Of a DNA stretch of 64,000 bases, positions 2,055 to 24,848 are shown piece by piece. Position 1 is the first letter of the stretch. Every line of letters begins with the position of its first letter. The notes under the pieces were generated by a model. The model made no database searches. It had not been told where the DNA came from and worked only from the letters and a program-made list of their open reading frames with translations. The stretch is from contig OZ245842.1 in the NCBI GenBank assembly GCA_965228895.1, forward strand, positions 1,568,001-1,632,000, written 5' to 3'. Source of the stretch: Alphaproteobacteria bacterium (GTDB taxonomy: Bacteria > Pseudomonadota > Alphaproteobacteria > SP197). The translations under genes were made by a program, and so were the position numbers.

Positions 2055-2978
2055 CTAGCGTTCACTCTGCTCGGCCAGCAGGTCGGGCAGGTGGGCGCGG
2101 CAGACATCGGCAAAGGCCAGTGCCATGCGCGTGGGGCGTGATGTGGCGAGCCGGGCAAGGCCCATGCGCATCTCGCGGCGCGGTTCGCGAAGCGGCACGG
2201 ACGCTAGGCTCGATCCGTCGAGCGCGCGGTGATGGGGTGCGCGCGAGTGCAGGAGACTGTAGCCGTAGCCGTTGGCGACCAGGCCGCGCACCATCTCGAA
2301 CGATGTGGTCTCGTAAGCGATGTTGGGTTCGATGCCGGCTTCGGCGAATACCGACAGGAAGTGGCTGCGGCTCTCGGGCAGACCGAGCAGCACCAGGGGC
2401 TCGCCTTCCAATTCCGTCAGCTTGACGGTCTTCTTGTCGGCGATGCGGTGCTCGGCGGGCACGATGACATGGATGGGAACCGTGACCAGCGGTTCGAAGT
2501 CGATGTCCTGGGGCATGTTGAGATCGTAGGTGACGGCGAACTCATAGCGTCCGCGCCTGAGGCCCTCGGGCAGGGCGCGCAGGTCTTCCTCGTGGGGGCG
2601 AACGCGGATCGCCGGGTGTTCGCGGGCGAAGACGCGCAGCACGCCGGGCAGCACGAAGGGCGCGAAGGTCACGAAACAGCCGATATCGAGATCGCCCTCC
2701 AGCGCCTCGCCCAGACCGGCGGCATCCTGGGTCAGCTCTTCCGCATGGGCCAGAAGCTCGCGCGCGGAGGCAAACAGGCGCCGTCCGGCCGGCGTCAGCG
2801 ACAGGCCCTGGGCGTGGTGTCGTATGAAAAGCTGCAGCCCGAACACGTCTTCCAGATGGCTGATCGCCGCCGAAACGGAGGGCTGCGACACATGGGTCGC
2901 TTCGGCCGCACGCGTGATGCTGCCGGCCTCGGCGGCCGCCACGAAGTAACGAAGTTGCTTCAGGGTATAGAGGATCAC
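2055..2978 (-). CDS. LysR-family transcriptional regulator
   Basis: N-terminal HTH (LKQLRYFVAAAEAGSITRAA..HVSQPSVS), LTPAG linker, C-terminal effector domain; divergent from the monooxygenase gene. Confidence 0.95.
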   Translation of the reverse strand: MILYTLKQLRYFVAAAEAGSITRAAEATHVSQPSVSAAISHLEDVFGLQLFIRHHAQGLSLTPAGRRLFASARELLAHAEELTQDAAGLGEALEGDLDIGCFVTFAPFVLPGVLRVFAREHPAIRVRPHEEDLRALPEGLRRGRYEFAVTYDLNMPQDIDFEPLVTVPIHVIVPAEHRIADKKTVKLTELEGEPLVLLGLPESRSHFLSVFAEAGIEPNIAYETTSFEMVRGLVANGYGYSLLHSRAPHHRALDGSSLASVPLREPRREMRMGLARLATSRPTRMALAFADVCRAHLPDLLAEQSER

Positions 2979-3015
2979 GAAAATCTATCCTATACGTCGC
3001 ATAAATATCTTTTGC
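2974..3015 (+). promoter_or_regulatory. Putative LysR-type binding region (T-N11-A) upstream of monooxygenase 1
   Basis: ATCACGAAAATCTAT followed by CCTATACGTCGCATAAATATCTTT; a similar motif lies at 21711-21752. Confidence 0.6.
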
Positions 3016-3073: not shown

Positions 3074-4525
3074 ATGCTGATGACCGGCGACCAGTACCGT
3101 GAGTCTCTAAAAGACGGCCGCGAGGTCTATATCGACGGCGAGCGCGTCACGAACGTGCCGGAACATCAGGCCTTCAAGCCGATCGTCGATGTGCGCGCGC
3201 GCATCTACGATATGGCGGGCGAAAACGCATTCCGCTCCACCATGGCGTTTTCCAAGGACGGCGAGGACTACGCCGTCGCCTGGCAGCCGCCCTATACCCA
3301 GGACGACTGGTGGGCCAAGCGCGATTGGGTCGACACGGTCATGAAGGAGATCGGCGGTGTCGTAACCCGCATCGGCGACGAGACGGTCGGTGAGATGTGG
3401 TCGCTGGCCGACGGCAAGGACATCTTGAATCAGGTCGATGACTCCTGGTCGAAGAACATCGATCACCACATCGACAATGTGCTGAAGAACGACATCTTCC
3501 ACGTCTCCGCCAACACCGATCCCAAGGGCGACCGCTCAAAGGCGCCGCAGGATCAGGACCCCGACATGCTGCTGCATGTGGTGAAGGAGACCGATGCCGG
3601 CATCGTGGTGCGCGGCGCCAAGTACGAAACCGCGGCCGCCTACGCCCATCAGGCCTTCGTCAAGCCGACCATCGCCAACTGGGGCGATGCCAAGCTCTCC
3701 GACTACGCGCTCGGTTTCATCTGCCCGATGAACGCGGAAGGTCTCAAGCACATCTGCCGCAATGGTTTTGCCGGGGTCAAACCAAAGGCCGACTATCCGC
3801 TCTCCAACGGTTTCGACGAGGTCGACACGCTGCTTGTCTTCGACAACGTGCTGGTGCCTTGGGAGAACGTGTTGTTCTACCGGCACACGGCGGCGGCCAG
3901 TTTCATTCGCGGCACGCTGCATCGCTACAGCGCCTACATGTTCGTCTTGCGCATCATGTACATCGCCGACCTCATGATCGGAACGGCGCTCTTTAATGTG
4001 CGTCAGACCGGCCTCGACAAACAGCAGGCGGTGCAGGAGAAGCTGGCGCAGCTGGCCTGTTACCGCGAAGGCATCAACGCGCATTTATCCGGCGCCATCG
4101 CCTTGGCCGAGAAGAGCCCCGGCGGCTTCCTGATGCCCAACCAGTCGCTGCTCTATACCGGCCGTGTGCTCGCCTGTTCACAATTGCCGGCGATGATGCA
4201 TCTGGCGCGCGAATTGTGCGGCGGTCAGATCTGTGTCACGCCGGACAGCCCATCCTTCTTGTCGGACGACACGAAGGCGTGGATGGAAAAATTCTACAAC
4301 GTCAACGACGATTGGCAGGCTGACGACCGGCGCAAGCTTCTGGCGTTCGGGCGCGACTTGCTGAATTCCGACTATGCCGGCCATAAGGTGACGTTCCAGT
4401 TGTTCGCCCAGTCGCCGCCATTCGCGCATCTGGGCGCCGTCTACCGCAACTTCGACTTCGATCAGTCGCTGGGCTTCGTCAAAACCGCGGCTGGTCTGTC
4501 GGACCGGGTGATGGCCAAGAAGTAG
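3074..4525 (+). CDS. 4-hydroxyphenylacetate 3-hydroxylase (HpaB/PvcC) family flavin-dependent monooxygenase, paralogue 1
   Basis: TGDQYRESLKDGREVYIDGE start; TDPKGDRS; VVKETDAGIVVRGAK; DYPLS..FDEVD.L.VFDNVLVPWE. Confidence 0.9.
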   Translation: MLMTGDQYRESLKDGREVYIDGERVTNVPEHQAFKPIVDVRARIYDMAGENAFRSTMAFSKDGEDYAVAWQPPYTQDDWWAKRDWVDTVMKEIGGVVTRIGDETVGEMWSLADGKDILNQVDDSWSKNIDHHIDNVLKNDIFHVSANTDPKGDRSKAPQDQDPDMLLHVVKETDAGIVVRGAKYETAAAYAHQAFVKPTIANWGDAKLSDYALGFICPMNAEGLKHICRNGFAGVKPKADYPLSNGFDEVDTLLVFDNVLVPWENVLFYRHTAAASFIRGTLHRYSAYMFVLRIMYIADLMIGTALFNVRQTGLDKQQAVQEKLAQLACYREGINAHLSGAIALAEKSPGGFLMPNQSLLYTGRVLACSQLPAMMHLARELCGGQICVTPDSPSFLSDDTKAWMEKFYNVNDDWQADDRRKLLAFGRDLLNSDYAGHKVTFQLFAQSPPFAHLGAVYRNFDFDQSLGFVKTAAGLSDRVMAKK

Positions 4526-4562: not shown

Positions 4563-4979
4563 ATGGCGCATCAGCGTTTCCGCAAGTTCAACACCAAGGC
4601 CATGTATCCCGAGCAGTCGCTTGACAACGATCTGTGCATGGTCGTACGCGCCGGCAACATGGTCTTCATGCGCGGCCAGACCGGTTTCGATCTGGACGGA
4701 AATTTTCATGGCGTCGGCGATGGCGCGGCCCAGGCCGAGCAGGCCATGAAGTGCGTCAAGCAGCTTCTTGAGGAGGCCGGCGCCAAGCTGGAGCATATCT
4801 GCAAGGTCACGATCTATCTGACCGACCCGCGTTACCGCGAACCCGTCTACAACGTCATCGGCAAGTGGCTGAAGGGCGTCTATCCGGTATCGACAGGTCT
4901 TGTCGTCCAGGCACTGGCCAAACCGGAAATGGTGATGGAAATCGACGTCGACGCGGTGATCCCGGACGGCGAAGGTTGA
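4563..4979 (+). CDS. RidA/YjgF family protein
   Basis: VRAGNMVFMRGQ, LEEAGAKLEHICKVTIYL, YPVST, EIDVDA. Confidence 0.9.
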   Translation: MAHQRFRKFNTKAMYPEQSLDNDLCMVVRAGNMVFMRGQTGFDLDGNFHGVGDGAAQAEQAMKCVKQLLEEAGAKLEHICKVTIYLTDPRYREPVYNVIGKWLKGVYPVSTGLVVQALAKPEMVMEIDVDAVIPDGEG

Positions 4980-4983
4980 CGTC

Positions 4984-5658
4984 ATGACCTTCTCGCTGAC
5001 CGCCCGCTGCGCCCAAACGGGCATGTTCGGTATCGTCGTGACGTCGTCCAGCATTTGCGTCGCGACGCGCTGCGCCTGGGTCAAAGGCCAAGTTGGCGCG
5101 GTCGCCAGCCAGAACATCACCGATCCCGGTCTGGGTCTTATGGGATTGGACTTGTTGGAACAGGGCTATGGCGCGGCGGCGGCCATGGAGATCCTGATCA
5201 AGGCCAGACCGTTCAGTGACTACCGCCAACTCGCCCTGATCGACCGTCTGGGCCACACGGCTCACCACTCGGGATCCGGCGTGCTGGGGACGAACAACAT
5301 CGTGGAGGGGCGGGACTGTATCGCGGCCGGCAACCTGCTGAGCACGCCCGACGTGCCCAATCACATGGTCAAGGCGTTCGAGAGCTCGGTCGGCGAACAT
5401 CTCGCTGAGCGTCTGCTGCAGGGCGTTGAAGCCGGCTTGGCGGCCGGTGGCGAGGAAGGCGACGTCAAATCCGTCGGCATCAAGGTGTGCCACGACCATG
5501 CGTGGCCGATCTGCGAGATGCGCGTCGACTGGCACGACGAGCCGATCGCCGAGCTGCGCCGTGTCTGGCAGGCCTATGAACCGCAGATGGCCGATTACAT
5601 ACAGCGCGCGCTCGACCCCACCGACGCGCCGTCTTACGGCGTACCCGGCGATCCTTGA
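4984..5658 (+). CDS. DUF1028 family (Ntn-hydrolase-like) protein
   Basis: MTFSLTARC..TGMFG N-terminus with Thr2; GAVASQ, RQLA, AAGNLL, RVDWHDEPIAEL. Confidence 0.9.
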   Translation: MTFSLTARCAQTGMFGIVVTSSSICVATRCAWVKGQVGAVASQNITDPGLGLMGLDLLEQGYGAAAAMEILIKARPFSDYRQLALIDRLGHTAHHSGSGVLGTNNIVEGRDCIAAGNLLSTPDVPNHMVKAFESSVGEHLAERLLQGVEAGLAAGGEEGDVKSVGIKVCHDHAWPICEMRVDWHDEPIAELRRVWQAYEPQMADYIQRALDPTDAPSYGVPGDP

Positions 5659-17752: not shown

Positions 17753-18688
17753 TCAGAGGTTCCTAGGCGTCGCTTGCGCCATCTGACGCCGGCGTTCGCG
17801 CTCGCCGGTCAGTGTATCGCCGACCACGGCCGCCAGGACGAGGCCGCCACCGATCAGGGTGAACGGTCCGGTCGTCTCGCTGAAAGCGAACCACACCCAC
17901 AGTGGCCCCAGCACCACCTCTACGAGATTGAGCAGCGCGACCTCGGCGGCCGGCACGTAACGGGCGCCTACGGTGATGAAGTAACAGGCCAAGCCAAGCT
18001 GGAAGACGCCCAAGGCGACAGTCAGGCCAAGGTCATGCGCGGATAACGACAAGCCAACGCCGGTCACAACAAAACACATGAAAAGCGCCGCGATCGTGCC
18101 CAGCAGACCGCCAAAGGCGGCAACTGGCAGCATCTCGATGTTTGGTTTGGATCGCAACGCAACCAGAAAGACGGCCAGTCCCAGAGCAGCGGCGGCCGCC
18201 GCGACGTTACCCCACAGATGGCCGAACGAGATATTCTCAGCCACCATCACGGCCACGCCCACCAGCGACACGACAATCGCCAGCCACGTCGCCAGTCTGA
18301 CATGTTCGCCCAAGAACAGACGTCCCAGGATCGCGGCCATGAAGGGTGCGGCCGCCAGCAGGAACATGGCGTTGGCGACCGTTGTCGACTCAATGGCGAT
18401 GATGATGCCGCAGAATGCAACGGCGATGCTGACACCGCCGACAATCGTCGCACCGGCTGCCTGGCGAAACGTATTGAGGATCTGGCCGGGGTTGCGCCAT
18501 GCTATGATGATCAGCAAGAACACCATCATGGAAAAGGAGCGCAGGGCCAGAATCTGCCAGGCCGTCGCGTCCTCCATCATGCGGACGCCTAAACCCATCC
18601 AGGACGACGCCAACGCGCCCAAAAGGACGAGAACGATTCCTCGGCGATAGCCGCCGGAACGGGCCGGTTGGACCGCAACGACACTCAT
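17753..18688 (-). CDS. DMT/EamA family transporter
   Basis: About 10 TM helices; LGE, LEVVLGPLWVW-like EamA motifs. Confidence 0.9.
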   Translation of the reverse strand: MSVVAVQPARSGGYRRGIVLVLLGALASSWMGLGVRMMEDATAWQILALRSFSMMVFLLIIIAWRNPGQILNTFRQAAGATIVGGVSIAVAFCGIIIAIESTTVANAMFLLAAAPFMAAILGRLFLGEHVRLATWLAIVVSLVGVAVMVAENISFGHLWGNVAAAAAALGLAVFLVALRSKPNIEMLPVAAFGGLLGTIAALFMCFVVTGVGLSLSAHDLGLTVALGVFQLGLACYFITVGARYVPAAEVALLNLVEVVLGPLWVWFAFSETTGPFTLIGGGLVLAAVVGDTLTGERERRRQMAQATPRNL

Positions 18689-18779
18689 GCCGGCATCCTT
18701 TCGGAAAGCTGGGCTGGAACGCGCCCAAATGAGCGAGCGCAGGCTAGCCGCGCTCCGTCAGTCTGTCATGAGTTTCGGT

Positions 18780-19949
18780 TCAGGCGGAAGCCCTGAAAAA
18801 GGCCCGGCACGCATCGGCAAAGGCCGTGGCGATGGAGGAAAGTTCGGTACCTGCCTTGCGCGCCAGGACGATTTTGCTGGCCGCGGCGTTGTCGGCGAGG
18901 GGACGTGCGACCAAAGCACGGCCGTCATAGGTCATGTTCGACGCCGGCTTGGTCGCGAGCAATGCGTAGCCAAGGCCATGACCGACCATGCCGCGGACCA
19001 TTTCGAGAGATCGTGAGCGAAAGCGGATGACCGGATCGTGGCCGCTCTGTTCGAACAGCGACAGAAAGTAGTCCGCGCTGGGTGGCGCATCGAGAAGGAT
19101 CATCGGTTCGCCTGCCAATTGTTCGAGCGACACGCTGGACCGGCCGGCCAGCGGATGGCCCTCGGCGAGCAAGACGTACGGCTTCAGGGCGTCGAGCGCC
19201 TCTTTCTCCAGGTCATCGCCGAGGTCGAGGTCGTAGAGAAGGGCGATTTCGGTCTCGCCCGACTTCAGGCCCTCGACGACCTGGCGCTGGTCGCCGTCGT
19301 GGAGTTGCAGTTGCGCTGCCGGGTGTTCGTCGACGAGGCGCGACAACAGCGCAGGCACGAGGTAGGGGCCGAACGTGTGAAAGCAGCCCAGGCGCAGCGG
19401 TTCCATTACGTTATCGGTCGCGTCGCCGCGCAGGCTGTGGATGCGCGTGGGCGTGCCGTAGGCGCGGTTGGCATAGATCAACGGCGAGCCGTGCGGCGCG
19501 ACGAAGATATCCTCGACCGCGCCCAGAAACACATGATGGGTACCGATACGTTCGCCGCTGACCATGCGGCAGTCGAACGCGACGAGGGGATCGACAACGC
19601 GCGGTGCCCCCGTGGTCTGGACCGTCCAATCGGCGCAAGAAAACTTGTCACCGTCATCGGTCTCGATCCGTCCGGCGAACGTATCGGAAATGAAAGACTG
19701 ATCGTCACGCAGCACGTTGACGCAGAAGACACCGTTTTCCAGGATTGCCGCAGCCGACGCGCTCTTGTGGTGCACACACACCAGCAGTGTCGGCTGCGGC
19801 GTATCCGCCGACACCGATGACATCGCCGAGACCGTTACCCCAGTCCGGCCGGCTGCACCATCGGTGGTCACCACGTTGACGGTGCAGGCGGCATGGCTCA
19901 TGCCGTTGAAGAACTGCTGCTTCAGATCGGCGTCGGTCAGGTCGTTCAT
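18780..19949 (-). CDS. Flavin reductase (HpaC-like) fused to a C-terminal LysR substrate-binding domain
   Basis: N-half: VNVVTTDG, GVTVSAMSSVS, PTLLVCV, FCVNVL, GTHHVFLG, PLIY..R.Y; C-half: LRLGCFHTFGP...SLEMVRGMVGHGLGYALL; no HTH. Confidence 0.9.
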   Translation of the reverse strand: MNDLTDADLKQQFFNGMSHAACTVNVVTTDGAAGRTGVTVSAMSSVSADTPQPTLLVCVHHKSASAAAILENGVFCVNVLRDDQSFISDTFAGRIETDDGDKFSCADWTVQTTGAPRVVDPLVAFDCRMVSGERIGTHHVFLGAVEDIFVAPHGSPLIYANRAYGTPTRIHSLRGDATDNVMEPLRLGCFHTFGPYLVPALLSRLVDEHPAAQLQLHDGDQRQVVEGLKSGETEIALLYDLDLGDDLEKEALDALKPYVLLAEGHPLAGRSSVSLEQLAGEPMILLDAPPSADYFLSLFEQSGHDPVIRFRSRSLEMVRGMVGHGLGYALLATKPASNMTYDGRALVARPLADNAAASKIVLARKAGTELSSIATAFADACRAFFRASA

Positions 19950-19991
19950 CGTTATCGATCCCTAGTTTGTTTCCGCTCATGCGGAACCGTT

Positions 19992-20062
19992 GCCAGCCCA
20001 CTCCCCCGCCCGGCCACCCCGAGGATGCTGCCATGGGTGGTCGGGCGGGGGAGTGGGCTGGC
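19992..20062 (+). repeat. Palindromic REP/MITE-like element, copy 3
   Basis: 28-bp arms (one G-T pair) around CGAGGATGCTGCCAT (20020-20034). Confidence 0.9.
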
Positions 20063-20081
20063 CATGGCCACTAAAGTAACG

Positions 20082-21617
20082 CTACGCCACGTCGTCCAGG
20101 TTCTGAGGCAGCATCGGCGAATGCTCGGCGAACCAGTGGGCGATCGTGCTGTCGCTGGTGCCTGGCGCCTTGTTCTCCAAGGTCTGATCAGACAAGTCTG
20201 CGACTTTGTGCATGAAGCGCATCGGACCGTCCCAATAGAAGTTGCGATAGACCGCGGCCAGATGCGCGAACGGCGGCGATTGCGCGAACAACTGGAAGGT
20301 CAGCCGGTGCCCGGCATAGTCCGAGTTGAAGAGATCGCGGGCGACGGCCAGCAGCTTGCGCCTGTCGTCGGCGGCCCAGTTGTCGTTGATGGTATAGAAC
20401 TTCTGCAGCCACGCGCTGGACTCGCCGTCGCTGAACGAGGCGGCGTCGGGCGTGACGCAGATCTGTCCGCCGCACAGCTCGCGTGCGATATGGACCATCG
20501 CCGGCAGGTTGGAACAGGCGTGCACGCGGCCCGTATAGAGCATCGACTGGTTCGGCATCATGAGGCCGCCCGGGCTCTTCTCGGCCAGCGAAATGGCGGC
20601 GGTCAGATGGGCGTTGATGCCTTCGCGGTAGACCGCGAGCTGAGCCAGTTTCTCCTGCACGGCCTGCTGTTTGTCGAGGCCGGTCTGGCGCACGTTGAAC
20701 ATGGCCGCGCCGATCATCATGTCGGCGAACTTCAGGTTGCGCTGCACGAAGGCGAACGCCGAGTACCGGTGCAGGGTCGCGCGGATGAAGGTCGCCGCCT
20801 TGGTGTGGCGATAGAACAGCACGTCTTCCCAGGGAATCAGCACATTGTCGAAGACGACCAGGGAGTCGACCTCGTCGAATTGGTTGGAGAGCGGGTAGTC
20901 TTCCTTCGGCGCGCGTCCGGCAAAACCGGTGCGGCACAGCATCTTGATGCCGGGCGTGCCGAGATCGCAGATAAAGCCGACGGCGTAGTCCGACAGCGCG
21001 TCCGAACCCCAGTTGGCGATGGTCGGTTTGGTGAACGCCTGGTTGGCGTAGGCTGCCGCGGTTTCATACTTGGCACCGCGCACGACGATGCCGGCGTCGG
21101 TCTCCTTGACCACGTGCAGCAGCATGTCCGGGTCCTGCTCCTGGGGCGGCTTGGAACGGTCGCCCTTGGGATCGGTGTTGGCGGAGACGTGGAACGGGTC
21201 ACCCTTCACCACCTTGTCGATGTGCCGGCGGATGTTCTCGGAGAACTGCGGGTCGACCTCGTTCAAGACGTCTTGACCGTCGAACAGGGACCACATTTCG
21301 CCGACCGTCTCGTCGCCGACGCGGGTGACGACGCCGTTGATGTCTTCGAACACCGCGTCCGTCGAGCGGCGTTTTTCCCACCAGTCCTTCTCGGTCCGCG
21401 GCGGCTTCAGGCCAACGGCGAACTTTTCGCCGTCCTCCTCATAGGTCATGACATCGGCGGTGGCGGGGTCGTGCGCCATGTCATAGATGCGCGCCCGGAT
21501 ATCGACCAGGGGTTTGAACATGGGATGCGACGGCACGTCCTTGACCTTCTCGCCGTTGACGTAGACCTGCCGGTCGTCGCGAATGGAATCGATGTACTCC
21601 TGGCCCGTCCTGATCAT
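20082..21617 (-). CDS. HpaB/PvcC family flavin-dependent monooxygenase, paralogue 2
   Basis: Colinear with the 3074..4525 product, with long identical blocks (QDPDMLLHVVKETDAGIVVRGAKYETAAAYA); extra C-terminal tail. Confidence 0.9.
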   Translation of the reverse strand: MIRTGQEYIDSIRDDRQVYVNGEKVKDVPSHPMFKPLVDIRARIYDMAHDPATADVMTYEEDGEKFAVGLKPPRTEKDWWEKRRSTDAVFEDINGVVTRVGDETVGEMWSLFDGQDVLNEVDPQFSENIRRHIDKVVKGDPFHVSANTDPKGDRSKPPQEQDPDMLLHVVKETDAGIVVRGAKYETAAAYANQAFTKPTIANWGSDALSDYAVGFICDLGTPGIKMLCRTGFAGRAPKEDYPLSNQFDEVDSLVVFDNVLIPWEDVLFYRHTKAATFIRATLHRYSAFAFVQRNLKFADMMIGAAMFNVRQTGLDKQQAVQEKLAQLAVYREGINAHLTAAISLAEKSPGGLMMPNQSMLYTGRVHACSNLPAMVHIARELCGGQICVTPDAASFSDGESSAWLQKFYTINDNWAADDRRKLLAVARDLFNSDYAGHRLTFQLFAQSPPFAHLAAVYRNFYWDGPMRFMHKVADLSDQTLENKAPGTSDSTIAHWFAEHSPMLPQNLDDVA

Positions 21618-21710
21618 CGCCTGCTCCTCGTTTCGGGAATAGATCGGGGAGGGCGGTCCGGCCGGCCCTCACGCTTCGATGCGGGGAACGTGGACGATCA
21701 CGCTGGTTCC

Positions 21711-21752
21711 GTAAAATATAACTTTCCCAAGCGTAGGATAGTTTTTTCTAAT
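21711..21752 (-). promoter_or_regulatory. Putative LysR-type binding region upstream of monooxygenase 2
   Basis: Minus strand ATTAGAAAAAACTAT-CCTACGCTTGGGAAAGTTATATTTT aligns without gaps to 2974-3015. Confidence 0.6.
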
Positions 21753-21837
21753 GATTTGACATGATGCCGTTCAATGTACGCAGTGGCAGGTCGCGTGACT
21801 GTGCGTATCATGCGGTTGGTTGTGGGGCGCGGTGCTG

Positions 21838-22557: not shown

Positions 22558-23298
22558 CTAAGCCGCCCTCTTTAAAGCGCCATCGAAGTCACTGCGCCAG
22601 GCGGCGAAGCCAACGACGTAGTTGTAGCCGCAAACGGTCTTGAGATCGCGACCGTCGACAATGTCGACGATTCGGTCGGCGCATTCCCGCGTGGCGTCCT
22701 TCGGCCCGTGGGGGTTGAGACGCATCTTCGCGCCGGGCGGAAAGGCGTAGTCGCAGGCGAACAGCACGTCACCCAGAATGTACATCGTCCAGCCAGGTGA
22801 ATGGCCGCCGATATGAAAGGCTTCGAGGTCGCCGTGTTTGAAGTCGCCAGTGAACTTGTCGTCGACAGGGAAAGCCGCGACCAGCGGATTGGCGGCGTCC
22901 GCCTCATGCAGGTGGACCTTGCAGTCCCATAGCGCGCGGTACTGGTTCGACGCGCCCAGGAAGTCCTTGTGGGTGAAGAAGATGTGGTCGACCGGCTGAA
23001 GATTTCGGTTGAAGGCGGACGGACAGTCGATCCATAAGGCGCCATTCTTGCCTTCGATACGATAGGCCGCGTGTTCGATGCCCAGGCGCGGCTGGGACAT
23101 CAATTGGGTCACCCGGTCTGTCACCGGCTTGGGCGTCACCGTATAGCCCTGCTCGGTCTCATCCCACGTTTTGAACTTGTCATGGCGTGCGCCGCAGAAC
23201 GGGCAGACATCCGGCATCTCGCCGATCATGTTGTAACCGCAGGTCAGGCACACCCATTGCTGGGTGGGAAAGTTCATGGGTAAGGGTCTGTCGAGCAT
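22558..23298 (-). CDS. Rubredoxin-like domain fused to a metallo-beta-lactamase-fold domain
   Basis: WVCLTCGY...CPFCGA; FFTHKD, GGHSPG, LFACD. Confidence 0.75.
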   Translation of the reverse strand: MLDRPLPMNFPTQQWVCLTCGYNMIGEMPDVCPFCGARHDKFKTWDETEQGYTVTPKPVTDRVTQLMSQPRLGIEHAAYRIEGKNGALWIDCPSAFNRNLQPVDHIFFTHKDFLGASNQYRALWDCKVHLHEADAANPLVAAFPVDDKFTGDFKHGDLEAFHIGGHSPGWTMYILGDVLFACDYAFPPGAKMRLNPHGPKDATRECADRIVDIVDGRDLKTVCGYNYVVGFAAWRSDFDGALKRAA

Positions 23299-23327: not shown

Positions 23328-24848
23328 TCAGCGGTCGAAGCGCAGGACGTCGCGCGCTTCGGCTTCGTGCCAGTTGCCACGATAATAACGCACGGCGGCG
23401 TCGTCGAACGGCTGGAAATCGACGGGCGTGCGCTTGCCGGTCATCAAAGCCTTGTTGACCAAGGCGTTGCGGCGCTGCTTGGTCAGGATGCGTTCAGTCA
23501 GCGCCTTGAGCGGCCAGCGCTGGCGCACCTCCGACTCGAAGCCCTCGACCTCCGCCTTACAGTCTAGATCGTGCACCAAATTGTCCCGTTCATCGGGGTC
23601 GTCGGCGAGGTCGAAGAGAGAGCAGGGGCCGCCCTCCCAATGCACGAACTTCCTGGTGCCCCGCCGGATCATGACGCCAGGCGCCCTTACGCCTTCGAAA
23701 AAGATCTCCGATGCCGTTTCGTCCCGCCAGGCCGCGCCGTCGCCGGTGATCAGCGGCATCAGGCTGCGCCCTTCGACCGGCTCGACCAACGCGTCGGTGC
23801 CGCCGTCGAGTGCCATGTCGAGCAGGGTCGGCATCAGATCGATCAGCGATGTTGCCTGGGCAACACGGCGCGTACCCGTCATGCCGGGGATGTGCACCAT
23901 CAGCGGCACGCGCGCTGAGCGTTCGTAGAAGCTCATCTTGTACCAGCAGCCGCGCTCGCCCAGCATGTCGCCGTGATCGGCGGTGAAGATGATGATCGTG
24001 TTGTCGTTCAGACGCGCGGCTTGCAGCGCGTCCAGCACCCGGCCAATCAGATCGTCGACCAGGGCAATCGAGCCGTAGTAGCCGTGGCGCGCGGTGCGGA
24101 TGTGCTCGTCTGTCACGTCAAATTCGCCGCGATCATAGTGGCGGTAGAGCCACTGACCGTGGGCGTCGCGTGCTTCCGGCGCGATAAACGGCACGGTGGG
24201 CATGTCGATATCATCGGCGCGGTAGCGATCCCAATAGGCGGGCGGCGTGACGTAGGGATCGTGAGGGTGGGTGAACGACACCTTCAGGCAGAACGGCCGC
24301 TCGTCGCCGCTTCGGGCGTAGTCATAGATCCAGCGCACAGCAAGGTGCGCGGTATCGTCGTCGTGATCGAGTTGTGTGCCGCGTTCGACGATACCCGCCT
24401 CGACGACATTCTTGAGGTCGTGGAACCAGGGCAGAATGCGGTCGGGCTCGTCCCAGATACCATACCAGTGATTGTCGGCCGGACAGATGTCGGTGGTCAG
24501 CCGCGTCTCCAACCCGTGCAACTGGTCGGGGCCGATGTAATGCGCCTTGCCGCTCAACACCGTCGCATAGCCGCCGGCGCGCAGATAGTGCGCGAAGGTC
24601 GGCGTCGACCACGGGTAATCGCAGCCGCTGTCGAAGACGTCGACCGCGGACGGCAGACGCCCGGTCATCAACCCCGCCCGCGCAGGCACACAGAGCGGCG
24701 CGTTCGAGTAGTGCGCATCGAAGATGACACTGTCGGCGGCGATAGCGTCCAGCCGCGGTGTCTTCACAATCTTGTGCCCATAGGCCGGCAGGAAGTGCGG
24801 CGCGAGCTGGTCGGCCATCAAGAACAGGATGTTGGGCTGGGTCGTCAT
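23328..24848 (-). CDS. betC: Choline-sulfatase-like sulfatase
   Basis: PNILFLMADQL, LCVPARAGLMTG (CxPxR), GPDQLHG, RLTTDI, SFTHPHDPY, DHGDMLGERG.WYKM. Confidence 0.8.
   Translation of the reverse strand: MTTQPNILFLMADQLAPHFLPAYGHKIVKTPRLDAIAADSVIFDAHYSNAPLCVPARAGLMTGRLPSAVDVFDSGCDYPWSTPTFAHYLRAGGYATVLSGKAHYIGPDQLHGLETRLTTDICPADNHWYGIWDEPDRILPWFHDLKNVVEAGIVERGTQLDHDDDTAHLAVRWIYDYARSGDERPFCLKVSFTHPHDPYVTPPAYWDRYRADDIDMPTVPFIAPEARDAHGQWLYRHYDRGEFDVTDEHIRTARHGYYGSIALVDDLIGRVLDALQAARLNDNTIIIFTADHGDMLGERGCWYKMSFYERSARVPLMVHIPGMTGTRRVAQATSLIDLMPTLLDMALDGGTDALVEPVEGRSLMPLITGDGAAWRDETASEIFFEGVRAPGVMIRRGTRKFVHWEGGPCSLFDLADDPDERDNLVHDLDCKAEVEGFESEVRQRWPLKALTERILTKQRRNALVNKALMTGKRTPVDFQPFDDAAVRYYRGNWHEAEARDVLRFDR

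Follow-up and report, generated by a model that had tools for sequence, protein, structure and literature searches.

A flavin reductase joined to a HinK-type LysR effector-binding domain: a possible substrate-gated partner of HpaB-family oxygenases

Introduction

Reduced flavin that is left free costs the cell NAD(P)H and gives rise to H2O2, and how two-component monooxygenases avoid idle flavin reduction is a live question. It is raised anew by one gene in a 64,000-nucleotide stretch of an alphaproteobacterial genome (assembly GCA_965228895.1, contig OZ245842.1, positions 1,568,001 to 1,632,000; the whole of this stretch is called the window below), in which a flavin reductase, a linker and a LysR effector-binding domain without its DNA-binding helix-turn-helix (HTH) are encoded as a single protein, here called the fusion. 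What would a sensor domain borrowed from a transcription factor do on a reductase? The reading favoured here, tentatively and at somewhat less than even confidence, is that of a substrate-gated flavin reductase, convergent with the reductase C1 of Acinetobacter baumannii. Effector-controlled reductases of two-component monooxygenases are a known kind; the new element is the LysR-derived sensor domain.

In the mechanism proposed, the fusion would act as the reductase within a flavin-dependent monooxygenase system of two components, and its reductase half would use NAD(P)H to reduce free flavin for oxygenases of the HpaB family, namely HpaB_A and probably HpaB_B, both encoded in the window. The effector domain, carried on a flexible linker of 17 residues, would keep flavin reduction low until the pathway substrate binds, most likely imidazole-4-acetate or a close analogue, and reduced flavin, hence H2O2, would be produced only when the oxygenase can use it. 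This reading is favoured because the layout is like that of C1 and because the nearest characterised relative of the sensor fold senses a small heteroaryl-acetate. The observations behind it concern the architecture of the protein, its conservation, its link to HpaB and its kinship with HinK.

Architecture and distribution of the fusion

The original prediction, made from the letters of the window, had read the protein as an HpaC-type flavin reductase N-terminus followed by a LysR domain devoid of an HTH, and the Pfam profiles bear this out. A full-length Flavin_Reduct domain (PF01613, 112.7 bits against a cut-off of 27) is followed by a LysR_substrate domain (PF03466, 139.9 bits against a cut-off of 28, covering profile positions 7-207 of 209), and no match to HTH_1 (PF00126) is found in the protein at E values up to 0.01, so that the fusion is not a LysR-type transcriptional regulator. 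In NCBIfam the C-terminal half aligns to regulators only from about their residue 84 onward (the OxyR alignment begins at OxyR residue 84), which indicates that nearly all of the LysR linker helix is missing together with the HTH. The reductase half lies nearest to RutF (TIGR03615, 133.7 bits, cut-off 254.75) and HpaC (TIGR02296, 113.9 bits, cut-off 205.95) in the same collection; judged by these profile scores, it is a member of the broad Flavin_Reduct family that falls in neither orthologue group. It is also, as had been proposed, the only recognisable flavin reductase of the window, holding the sole PF01613 match within 64 kb, with five more elsewhere in the genome. Database names for the fusion family are only generic ('LysR substrate-binding domain-containing protein', 'FMN reductase (NADH) RutF family'), and a literature search for the pair of flavin reductase and LysR effector domain found no description of the fusion.

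The possibility that assembly or gene calling has merged two separate genes is negligible. The gene is a single open reading frame (ORF) without stops, and contiguous Logan contigs from two studies span the whole of it without indels: record 1 of sample X1, which may be the sample of origin, covers window positions 18700-20022 with 0 differences, and record 9 of sample X2 covers 18700-20011 with 21 substitutions. An X1 contig that joins position 19829 to 21321 has only 21 letters on one side of the joint and was disregarded as too weak. Homologues argue against an artefact in the same way. A search of a 5.8-billion-protein collection, in which 8000 candidates were scored and 1792 had E values up to 1e-3, showed that the best 120 of these 1792 all carry PF01613 together with PF03466 and that none of the 120 carries HTH_1 (59-92% identical, 375-473 aa, typically about 390 aa). 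Of the 150 top-ranking representatives after clustering at 50%, 25 can be aligned over both domains (36-59% identity); four of the five divergent representatives tested keep both Pfam domains (P0141, P0145, P0162 and P0165), the fifth (P0215) being LysR_substrate alone, and the two domains are retained together down to 35% identity. Representatives of 245-290 aa that match the reductase half alone (P0159, P0160, P0164, P0170 and others) have extra parts of no family or of a mismatched one, and were taken as frame or calling artefacts. The ESM Atlas adds three clusters of the same architecture, with 70, 125 and 50 members.

Within the class the fusion is sparse: a match over both domains occurs in 3 of 401 evenly sampled genomes (G000, G064 and G102), and the three sampled genomes of the window's own family have a regulator-type match only. 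The fusion is nonetheless confirmed as a real, widespread bacterial protein, neither unique to this assembly nor lacking read support, two doubts that the original prediction had raised against itself. One further copy, in a metagenome-assembled genome (MAG) of Amaricoccus (L014:1353-2474), has an in-frame stop after residue 149 and may be a pseudogene or a sequencing error.

Constraint on both halves and predicted structure

A third such doubt was that the effector domain might evolve neutrally, and the comparison of the window with a 93% identical relative (locus L007) removes it: the ratio of non-synonymous to synonymous substitution rates (dN/dS) is 0.078 in the effector domain, with 22.5 non-synonymous and 69.5 synonymous differences, against 0.076 in the reductase domain. 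The synonymous rate itself is uneven between the two halves (0.23 in the reductase domain, 0.65 in the effector domain), which might reflect intragenic recombination or different codon constraints. In an alignment of 53 sequences all 24 invariant columns fall in the reductase domain; in the effector domain, conservation reaches 90% or more in 15 columns. Sequence varies most in the linker, with 19-35% identity among distant relatives against 55-80% for the domains.

AlphaFold2, supplied with the 53-sequence alignment, models two domains with confidence (mean pLDDT 87.9; 260 residues score at least 90) joined by residues 161-178, which have a pLDDT below 50 and are modelled without secondary structure. 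Given this linker and a pTM of 0.55, no fixed arrangement of the domains is predicted. Prediction of a complex between a reductase dimer (residues 1-168, two copies) and the effector domain (residues 180-389) gave ipSAE values of 0.00 and 0.00, which, with no controls, are not evidence either way. When the model was compared with the PDB by Foldseek, no listed target aligned over more than about 220 columns and none covered both domains; the best solved relative of the reductase half was CobR (3cb0, 40% identity).

A HinK-type effector domain

LysR effector-binding domains have the periplasmic-binding-protein type 2 fold. For that of the fusion, the top rank in the Foldseek search is 6m5f (42% identity, rmsd 1.7 A over 206 columns, E = 5e-25), an entry titled 'Crystal structure of HinK, a LysR family transcriptional regulator from Pseudomonas aeruginosa', after which come 3fzv and then the 2ql3 effector domain and, for the reductase half, CobR. 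A sequence search of the PDB agrees, with 3fzv/6m5f best for the effector domain at 169 bits and OxyR, at 64 bits, as the next regulator of known function. By sequence and by fold, the effector domain of the fusion is thus of HinK type. HinK is described as responding to imidazole-4-acetic acid and as controlling hinDAC and hinFLHG (PMC8231116; PMC10912698).

The window also encodes a full-length HinK-like regulator, whose best PDB match is again 3fzv/6m5f (254 bits over residues 2-300), followed by CysB at 97 bits; it is encoded on the minus strand, the plus-strand reading containing stops. The resemblance between its effector domain and that of the fusion, which had been noticed from a few pairs of short motifs, proves to be genuine homology (39% identical over 199 aa, E = 8e-48). 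Their relationship was followed by quick maximum-likelihood inference from 108 effector domains (48 of fusions, 59 of regulators, 1 outgroup); of the resulting tree the unrooted split alone was used, the root on a single long outgroup row being unreliable. The label 'fusion' needs 2 changes on this tree, of which the starred branches force only 1, and this would fit a single fusion event in the distant past. The effector domains of fusions and those of adjacent regulators occupy different parts of the tree, and no fusion domain is sister to its neighbouring regulator; on this phylogeny the local LysR regulator is not the recent source of the effector domain.

In 20 columns, fusion (n=48) and HinK-like regulator (n=59) domains have one and the same residue, at least 80% conserved in each group; 0 columns are switched. 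The conserved polar residues Y239, D240, H265, S291, Y294, S314, E316, R319 and D342 are each found in 34-44 of the 48 fusions, and His191, Arg222 and Leu326 are typical of fusions only. HinK itself (PA0218 of P. aeruginosa; 6m5f, 3fzv) is thus alike in having the closest solved effector domain, in the conserved polar residues that the fusion shares with the clade of HinK-like regulators, and in an associated catabolic cluster (hinFLHG) with the same gene classes as the fusion cluster. The difference is that the domain of the fusion, borne on an enzyme and without HTH and linker helix, cannot be a DNA-binding regulator. As such it is an example of a LysR effector domain put to use outside transcription.

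The reductase half and its oxygenase partners

HpaB_A lies directly upstream of the fusion on the same strand and ends 133 nt before it. This neighbourhood recurs: HpaB adjoins the fusion in 8 of 13 other fusion loci and lies directly upstream of it in all 3 sampled genomes that hold the fusion, the G064 and G102 loci included, with a regulator directly downstream in G064 as well. The fusion gene follows that of an HpaB-family oxygenase as hpaC follows hpaB, and its full-length Flavin_Reduct domain is that of the stand-alone reductases (HpaC, RutF, CobR 3cb0, TftC 3k86, PheA2 1rz0), from which it differs in carrying 220 extra C-terminal residues.

The HpaB subfamily to which HpaB_A belongs (at least 62% identity) is present in 28 of the 401 genomes, and in 5 of these (G039, G089, G136, G167 and G292) a stand-alone reductase, 49-65% identical to that of the fusion, is encoded within 1.5 kb of HpaB, which argues that the reductase half is the usual partner of this subfamily. 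In G039 (L027:1498-2460) a reductase of the same type (65% identity) is fused to RidA (Ribonuc_L-PSP) in a protein of 320 aa. This gene resembles the fusion in reductase subfamily and in its operon position after HpaB, DUF1028 then following, but the partner joined to it is the next pathway enzyme and not a sensor domain. The five other Flavin_Reduct genes of the window's genome are at most 33% identical to the fusion reductase or undetected by tblastn; by this measure no other reductase found in the genome is of the fusion's subfamily. A tree of reductase domains (80 rows, quick IQ-TREE, 5 starred branches) has fused and solo rows interspersed and is too unresolved for a single-clade call, and some of its 'solo' rows may be fragments at contig ends.

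Comparison with C1

C1 is the reductase of p-hydroxyphenylacetate 3-hydroxylase (PDB 5zc2; NF045919). Its reductase residues 1-168 are followed by a flexible loop and by a C-terminal MarR/NadR-like domain (191-315) that binds the oxygenase substrate, with higher NADH affinity, hydride transfer and release of reduced FMN as the result, and three two-component systems with substrate-stimulated flavin reduction are named in the same report (PMC11618861). The fusion is alike in combining a reductase, a flexible loop, a sensor domain derived from a transcription factor and a separate oxygenase, and the reductase domains are homologous (5zc2_B, E = 3.1e-8). They differ in the C-terminal domain, MarR/NadR-like and helical in C1, LysR effector-binding in the fusion; the oxygenase partner of C1 belongs to a family other than HpaB. 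The match to NF045919 covers the reductase part only (residues 13-173 to profile positions 10-164 of 309, 51.4 bits against a cut-off of 340). By this profile the fusion is not a C1-type member of NF045919 and would at most work like one, the likeness being one of layout only.

If gating is true, sensor-gated flavin reduction would have evolved at least twice, with different sensor folds, and the fusion would be a modular design of natural origin on which ligand-controlled redox enzymes and biosensors could be modelled.

Gene neighbourhood and candidate pathway

About 14 kb from the fusion, the window holds a second set of genes, comprising the HinK-like regulator, the divergent HpaB_B, a RidA-family protein and a DUF1028 protein. 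The same classes recur around the fusion elsewhere. A scan of genome contigs gave 11 fusion loci, one of them L014 with its in-frame stop, and among these an HpaB 72-86% identical to HpaB_A is found in 6, directly upstream of the fusion, a full-length HinK-like regulator in 5, RidA in 4 and DUF1028 in 6. Further recurring partners are M20 peptidase (in L008 and L013), HutD, class-III aminotransferase, aldehyde dehydrogenase, ABC transporters and enzymes like trimethylamine or histamine dehydrogenase.

In Table 3 of PMC6467879, HinF is listed as an FAD-monooxygenase (EC 1.14.13.5), HinL as an enamine deaminase, HinH as an amidase, HinG as an amidase (EC 3.5.1.8) and HinD as an aldehyde dehydrogenase, and the same source describes HinC as an aminotransferase. 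As far as that table and description go, the cluster partners match HinL, HinH, HinG, HinC and HinD by functional class (PMC6467879). The window has a full-length HinK-type regulator, as goes with hinFLHG; its RidA and DUF1028 genes, and the M20 peptidase of L008 and L013, are candidate counterparts, by functional class, of HinL and of the amidases HinH and HinG. In L013 the gene order is HpaB, fusion, RidA, DUF1028, M20, which by the same measure corresponds to F-L-H-G, and for this reason we suggest that the cluster degrades imidazole-4-acetate or a close analogue. HpaB-family oxygenases in bacterial histamine and imidazole-acetate catabolism are thereby a testable lead.

Proteins of about 680-690 aa with Oxidored_FMN and Pyr_redox_2 domains adjoin the fusion in two loci (L010:3843-5882 and L012:7374-9446). 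This is the architecture of trimethylamine dehydrogenase, common to histamine dehydrogenase, and it fits a route from histamine to imidazole-acetate.

A common promoter element and the loss of HpaB in one relative

The promoter regions of the two HpaB genes share an element of 29 nt. The pattern that describes it, CDATBCW-N18-TTTT, was composed after sight of both window sites; it has exactly 2 matches in the window, where 0.22 are expected and 2 were reached in 1 of 100 shuffles. Genome-wide it has 19 matches against 8 for a reversed control, which is weak alone. In other genomes the element occurs within 200 nt upstream of HpaB, in the orientation of the gene, in 9 of 25 regions, and it is found in L075, L013 and L007 also. 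The sharing of the element by both HpaB promoters is suggestive of an operator, though not proof of one. An exact 8-mer, CTATCCTA, is unconserved in other genomes, and its sharing between two short intergenic regions is not by itself significant; the degenerate pattern was used in its place. One more AT-rich match in the genome, the third (G000:C1:3769748), was dropped; it precedes an FMO-like gene for which no link to the pathway is visible. No RNA data set was listed as covering window positions 18700-21800.

Directly ahead of the fusion, L007 retains the promoter with its operator-like element and, of the HpaB ORF, the first 19 nt (L007:5820-6003). At the junction these 19 nt are followed by 13 unrelated bases and then by sequence that begins 25 nt upstream of the fusion ATG; what corresponds to window positions 19975..21598 is missing, and with it HpaB_A and the palindromic repeat that separates it from the fusion in the window. 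HpaB has thus been lost from L007 while the fusion, intact and under constraint, still stands behind the same promoter; this argues that an oxygenase encoded at another site is also served by the fusion. The suggestion that it may serve both oxygenases of the window gains indirect support from this loss, from the common promoter element and from its position as sole reductase of the subfamily in the genome.

Is flavin reduction gated?

Several points weigh against substrate gating, and against imidazole-4-acetate as the substrate. Ligand binding, the identity of the ligand and allosteric control are all things that we infer, and the AlphaFold2 model predicts no autoinhibitory interface between the domains. 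Arg292, found in 50 of 59 HinK-like regulators, is kept in 21 of 48 fusions and is Ala in that of the window; this replacement suggests that the ligand site may differ from that of HinK. HinF, the imidazole-acetate monooxygenase of Pseudomonas, may be of a family other than HpaB, the third HpaB+RidA pair of the genome lies in an unrelated-looking cluster (MarR, an MTTB-family protein and a Rieske oxygenase), and one divergent fusion (L019) stands beside a luciferase-like monooxygenase and not HpaB, so that imidazole-4-acetate is a candidate substrate. Finally, the RidA fusion of G039 shows that neighbouring genes of this operon can fuse without sensory logic. It thereby also favours an unlikely explanation, in which the effector domain is a passive module that does not switch the reductase, be it an oligomerisation scaffold, a stoichiometry tether, a buffer of substrate or product, or a fixed join of neighbours. 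The lack of a predicted interface is in keeping with such a module, as is the occurrence elsewhere of stand-alone reductases that serve the same HpaB subfamily, for which the extra domain is evidently dispensable in catalysis. A merely structural domain would, however, not be expected to retain the HinK-type polar residues to the extent seen in the fusions, its dN/dS is as low as that of the catalytic domain, and a loss confined to the HTH, and placed at the hinge, has the look of selection for the sensor part.

The effector domain might instead act on transcription, as an anti-activator or co-regulator that forms mixed dimers or tetramers with the HinK-like regulator or competes with it for ligand, in which case expression of the HpaB operons would respond to how much of the enzyme is present or to its redox state. 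LysR effector domains are well known to dimerise, the HinK subfamily includes both that of the fusion and that of the regulator, the operator-like element stands in both HpaB promoters, and 6 of 13 other fusion loci have a full-length HinK-like regulator in their flanks, which in L009 and G064 immediately follows the fusion on the same strand. Fusion and neighbouring regulator domains are, however, 33-39% identical and separate in the tree, a large distance for a heterodimer interface, and in the window genome the regulator lies 15.8 kb from the fusion, which makes this role rather improbable. Still more doubtful is a sensor of dual output, in which imidazole-4-acetate on the LysR-derived domain would turn on flavin reduction while the domain also swapped subunits with the HinK-like regulator, a single ligand-binding module thereby setting both the supply of reduced flavin in the cell and the transcription of the oxygenase operons; if true, it would be a second independent case in which a transcription-factor sensor domain gates a flavin reductase, and the first demonstration of signalling by a LysR effector domain carried on an enzyme. 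Oxidant sensing, in which Cys189 would react with H2O2 from uncoupled flavin turnover and so throttle the reductase, is very improbable: among NCBIfam regulator profiles OxyR matches the domain best (62.8 bits) and Cys189 is present in 33 of 48 fusions, but the OxyR score is far under its cut-off of 329 and HinK is much closer, the same Cys is found in 45 of 59 HinK-like regulators and so is not specific to fusions, and only one conserved Cys is seen.

Other features of the window and related loci

The features discussed are collected in Table 1.

Table 1. Positions of the fusion, its domains and associated features in the 64-kb window
Feature	Position	Strand	Basis
Fusion gene: flavin reductase, linker and HTH-less LysR effector-binding domain	18780..19949	-	ORF of 389 aa, ATG start; Pfam
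Flavin_Reduct domain, residues 17-166	19452..19901	-	PF01613, E 2.3e-32, profile positions 1-151 of 153
Inter-domain linker, residues 167-183	19401..19451	-	Low AlphaFold2 confidence; variable in sequence
LysR effector-binding domain, residues 184-384, HinK type	18798..19400	-	PF03466, E 9.9e-41
HpaB_A, 511-aa HpaB-family oxygenase component	20082..21617	-	HpaB_N + HpaB (Pfam); below HpaB equivalog cut-offs
Operator-like 29-nt element upstream of HpaB_A	21713..21741	-	Match to CDATBCW-N18-TTTT
71-nt perfect palindrome, REP-like genomic repeat, between HpaB_A and fusion	19992..20062	.	Folding; genome-wide matches
EamA-family transporter, downstream of fusion	17753..18688	-	Pfam; follows the fusion in L007 too
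HinK-like LysR-type regulator, full length with HTH	2055..2978	-	Pfam HTH_1 + LysR_substrate
Operator-like 29-nt element, divergent intergenic region of regulator and HpaB_B	2985..3013	+	Match to CDATBCW-N18-TTTT
HpaB_B, second HpaB-family oxygenase, 69% identical to HpaB_A	3074..4525	+	Pfam
RidA-family (Ribonuc_L-PSP) protein, HinL-like	4563..4979	+	Pfam, E 1.3e-20
DUF1028 protein	4984..5658	+	Pfam, E 3.5e-60

The palindrome between HpaB_A and the fusion resembles a repetitive extragenic palindromic (REP) element. The 132-nt intergenic RNA that contains it folds with -85.8 kcal/mol (z -8.8), its arm is matched at 90 places in the 5.5-Mb genome when up to 3 mismatches are allowed, against 1 for a control, and short-read contigs break at it, with spikes of depth.

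The third HpaB paralogue of the genome, outside the window (L079:8243-10104, that is G000:C1:1834242-1836103), is 484 aa long and 64% identical to HpaB_A, and has a RidA of its own. Around it are a divergent MarR regulator and genes for an MTTB-family methyltransferase, a Rieske oxygenase and OYE/TMADH-like proteins, with no reductase nearby. The divergent fusion of a Parasphingorhabdus MAG (L019:5983-7143, 43% identity) is surrounded by luciferase-like monooxygenase, P450, Rieske oxygenase, CoA-transferase and thiolase-like genes and by no HpaB; the fusion architecture may serve other flavin-dependent oxygenases there. Beyond the cluster in the window lie a choline-sulfatase equivalog (TIGR03417, 608 bits; 23328-24848) and a protein with a rubredoxin-like domain (22558-23298), and the same genes flank the fusion of L007.

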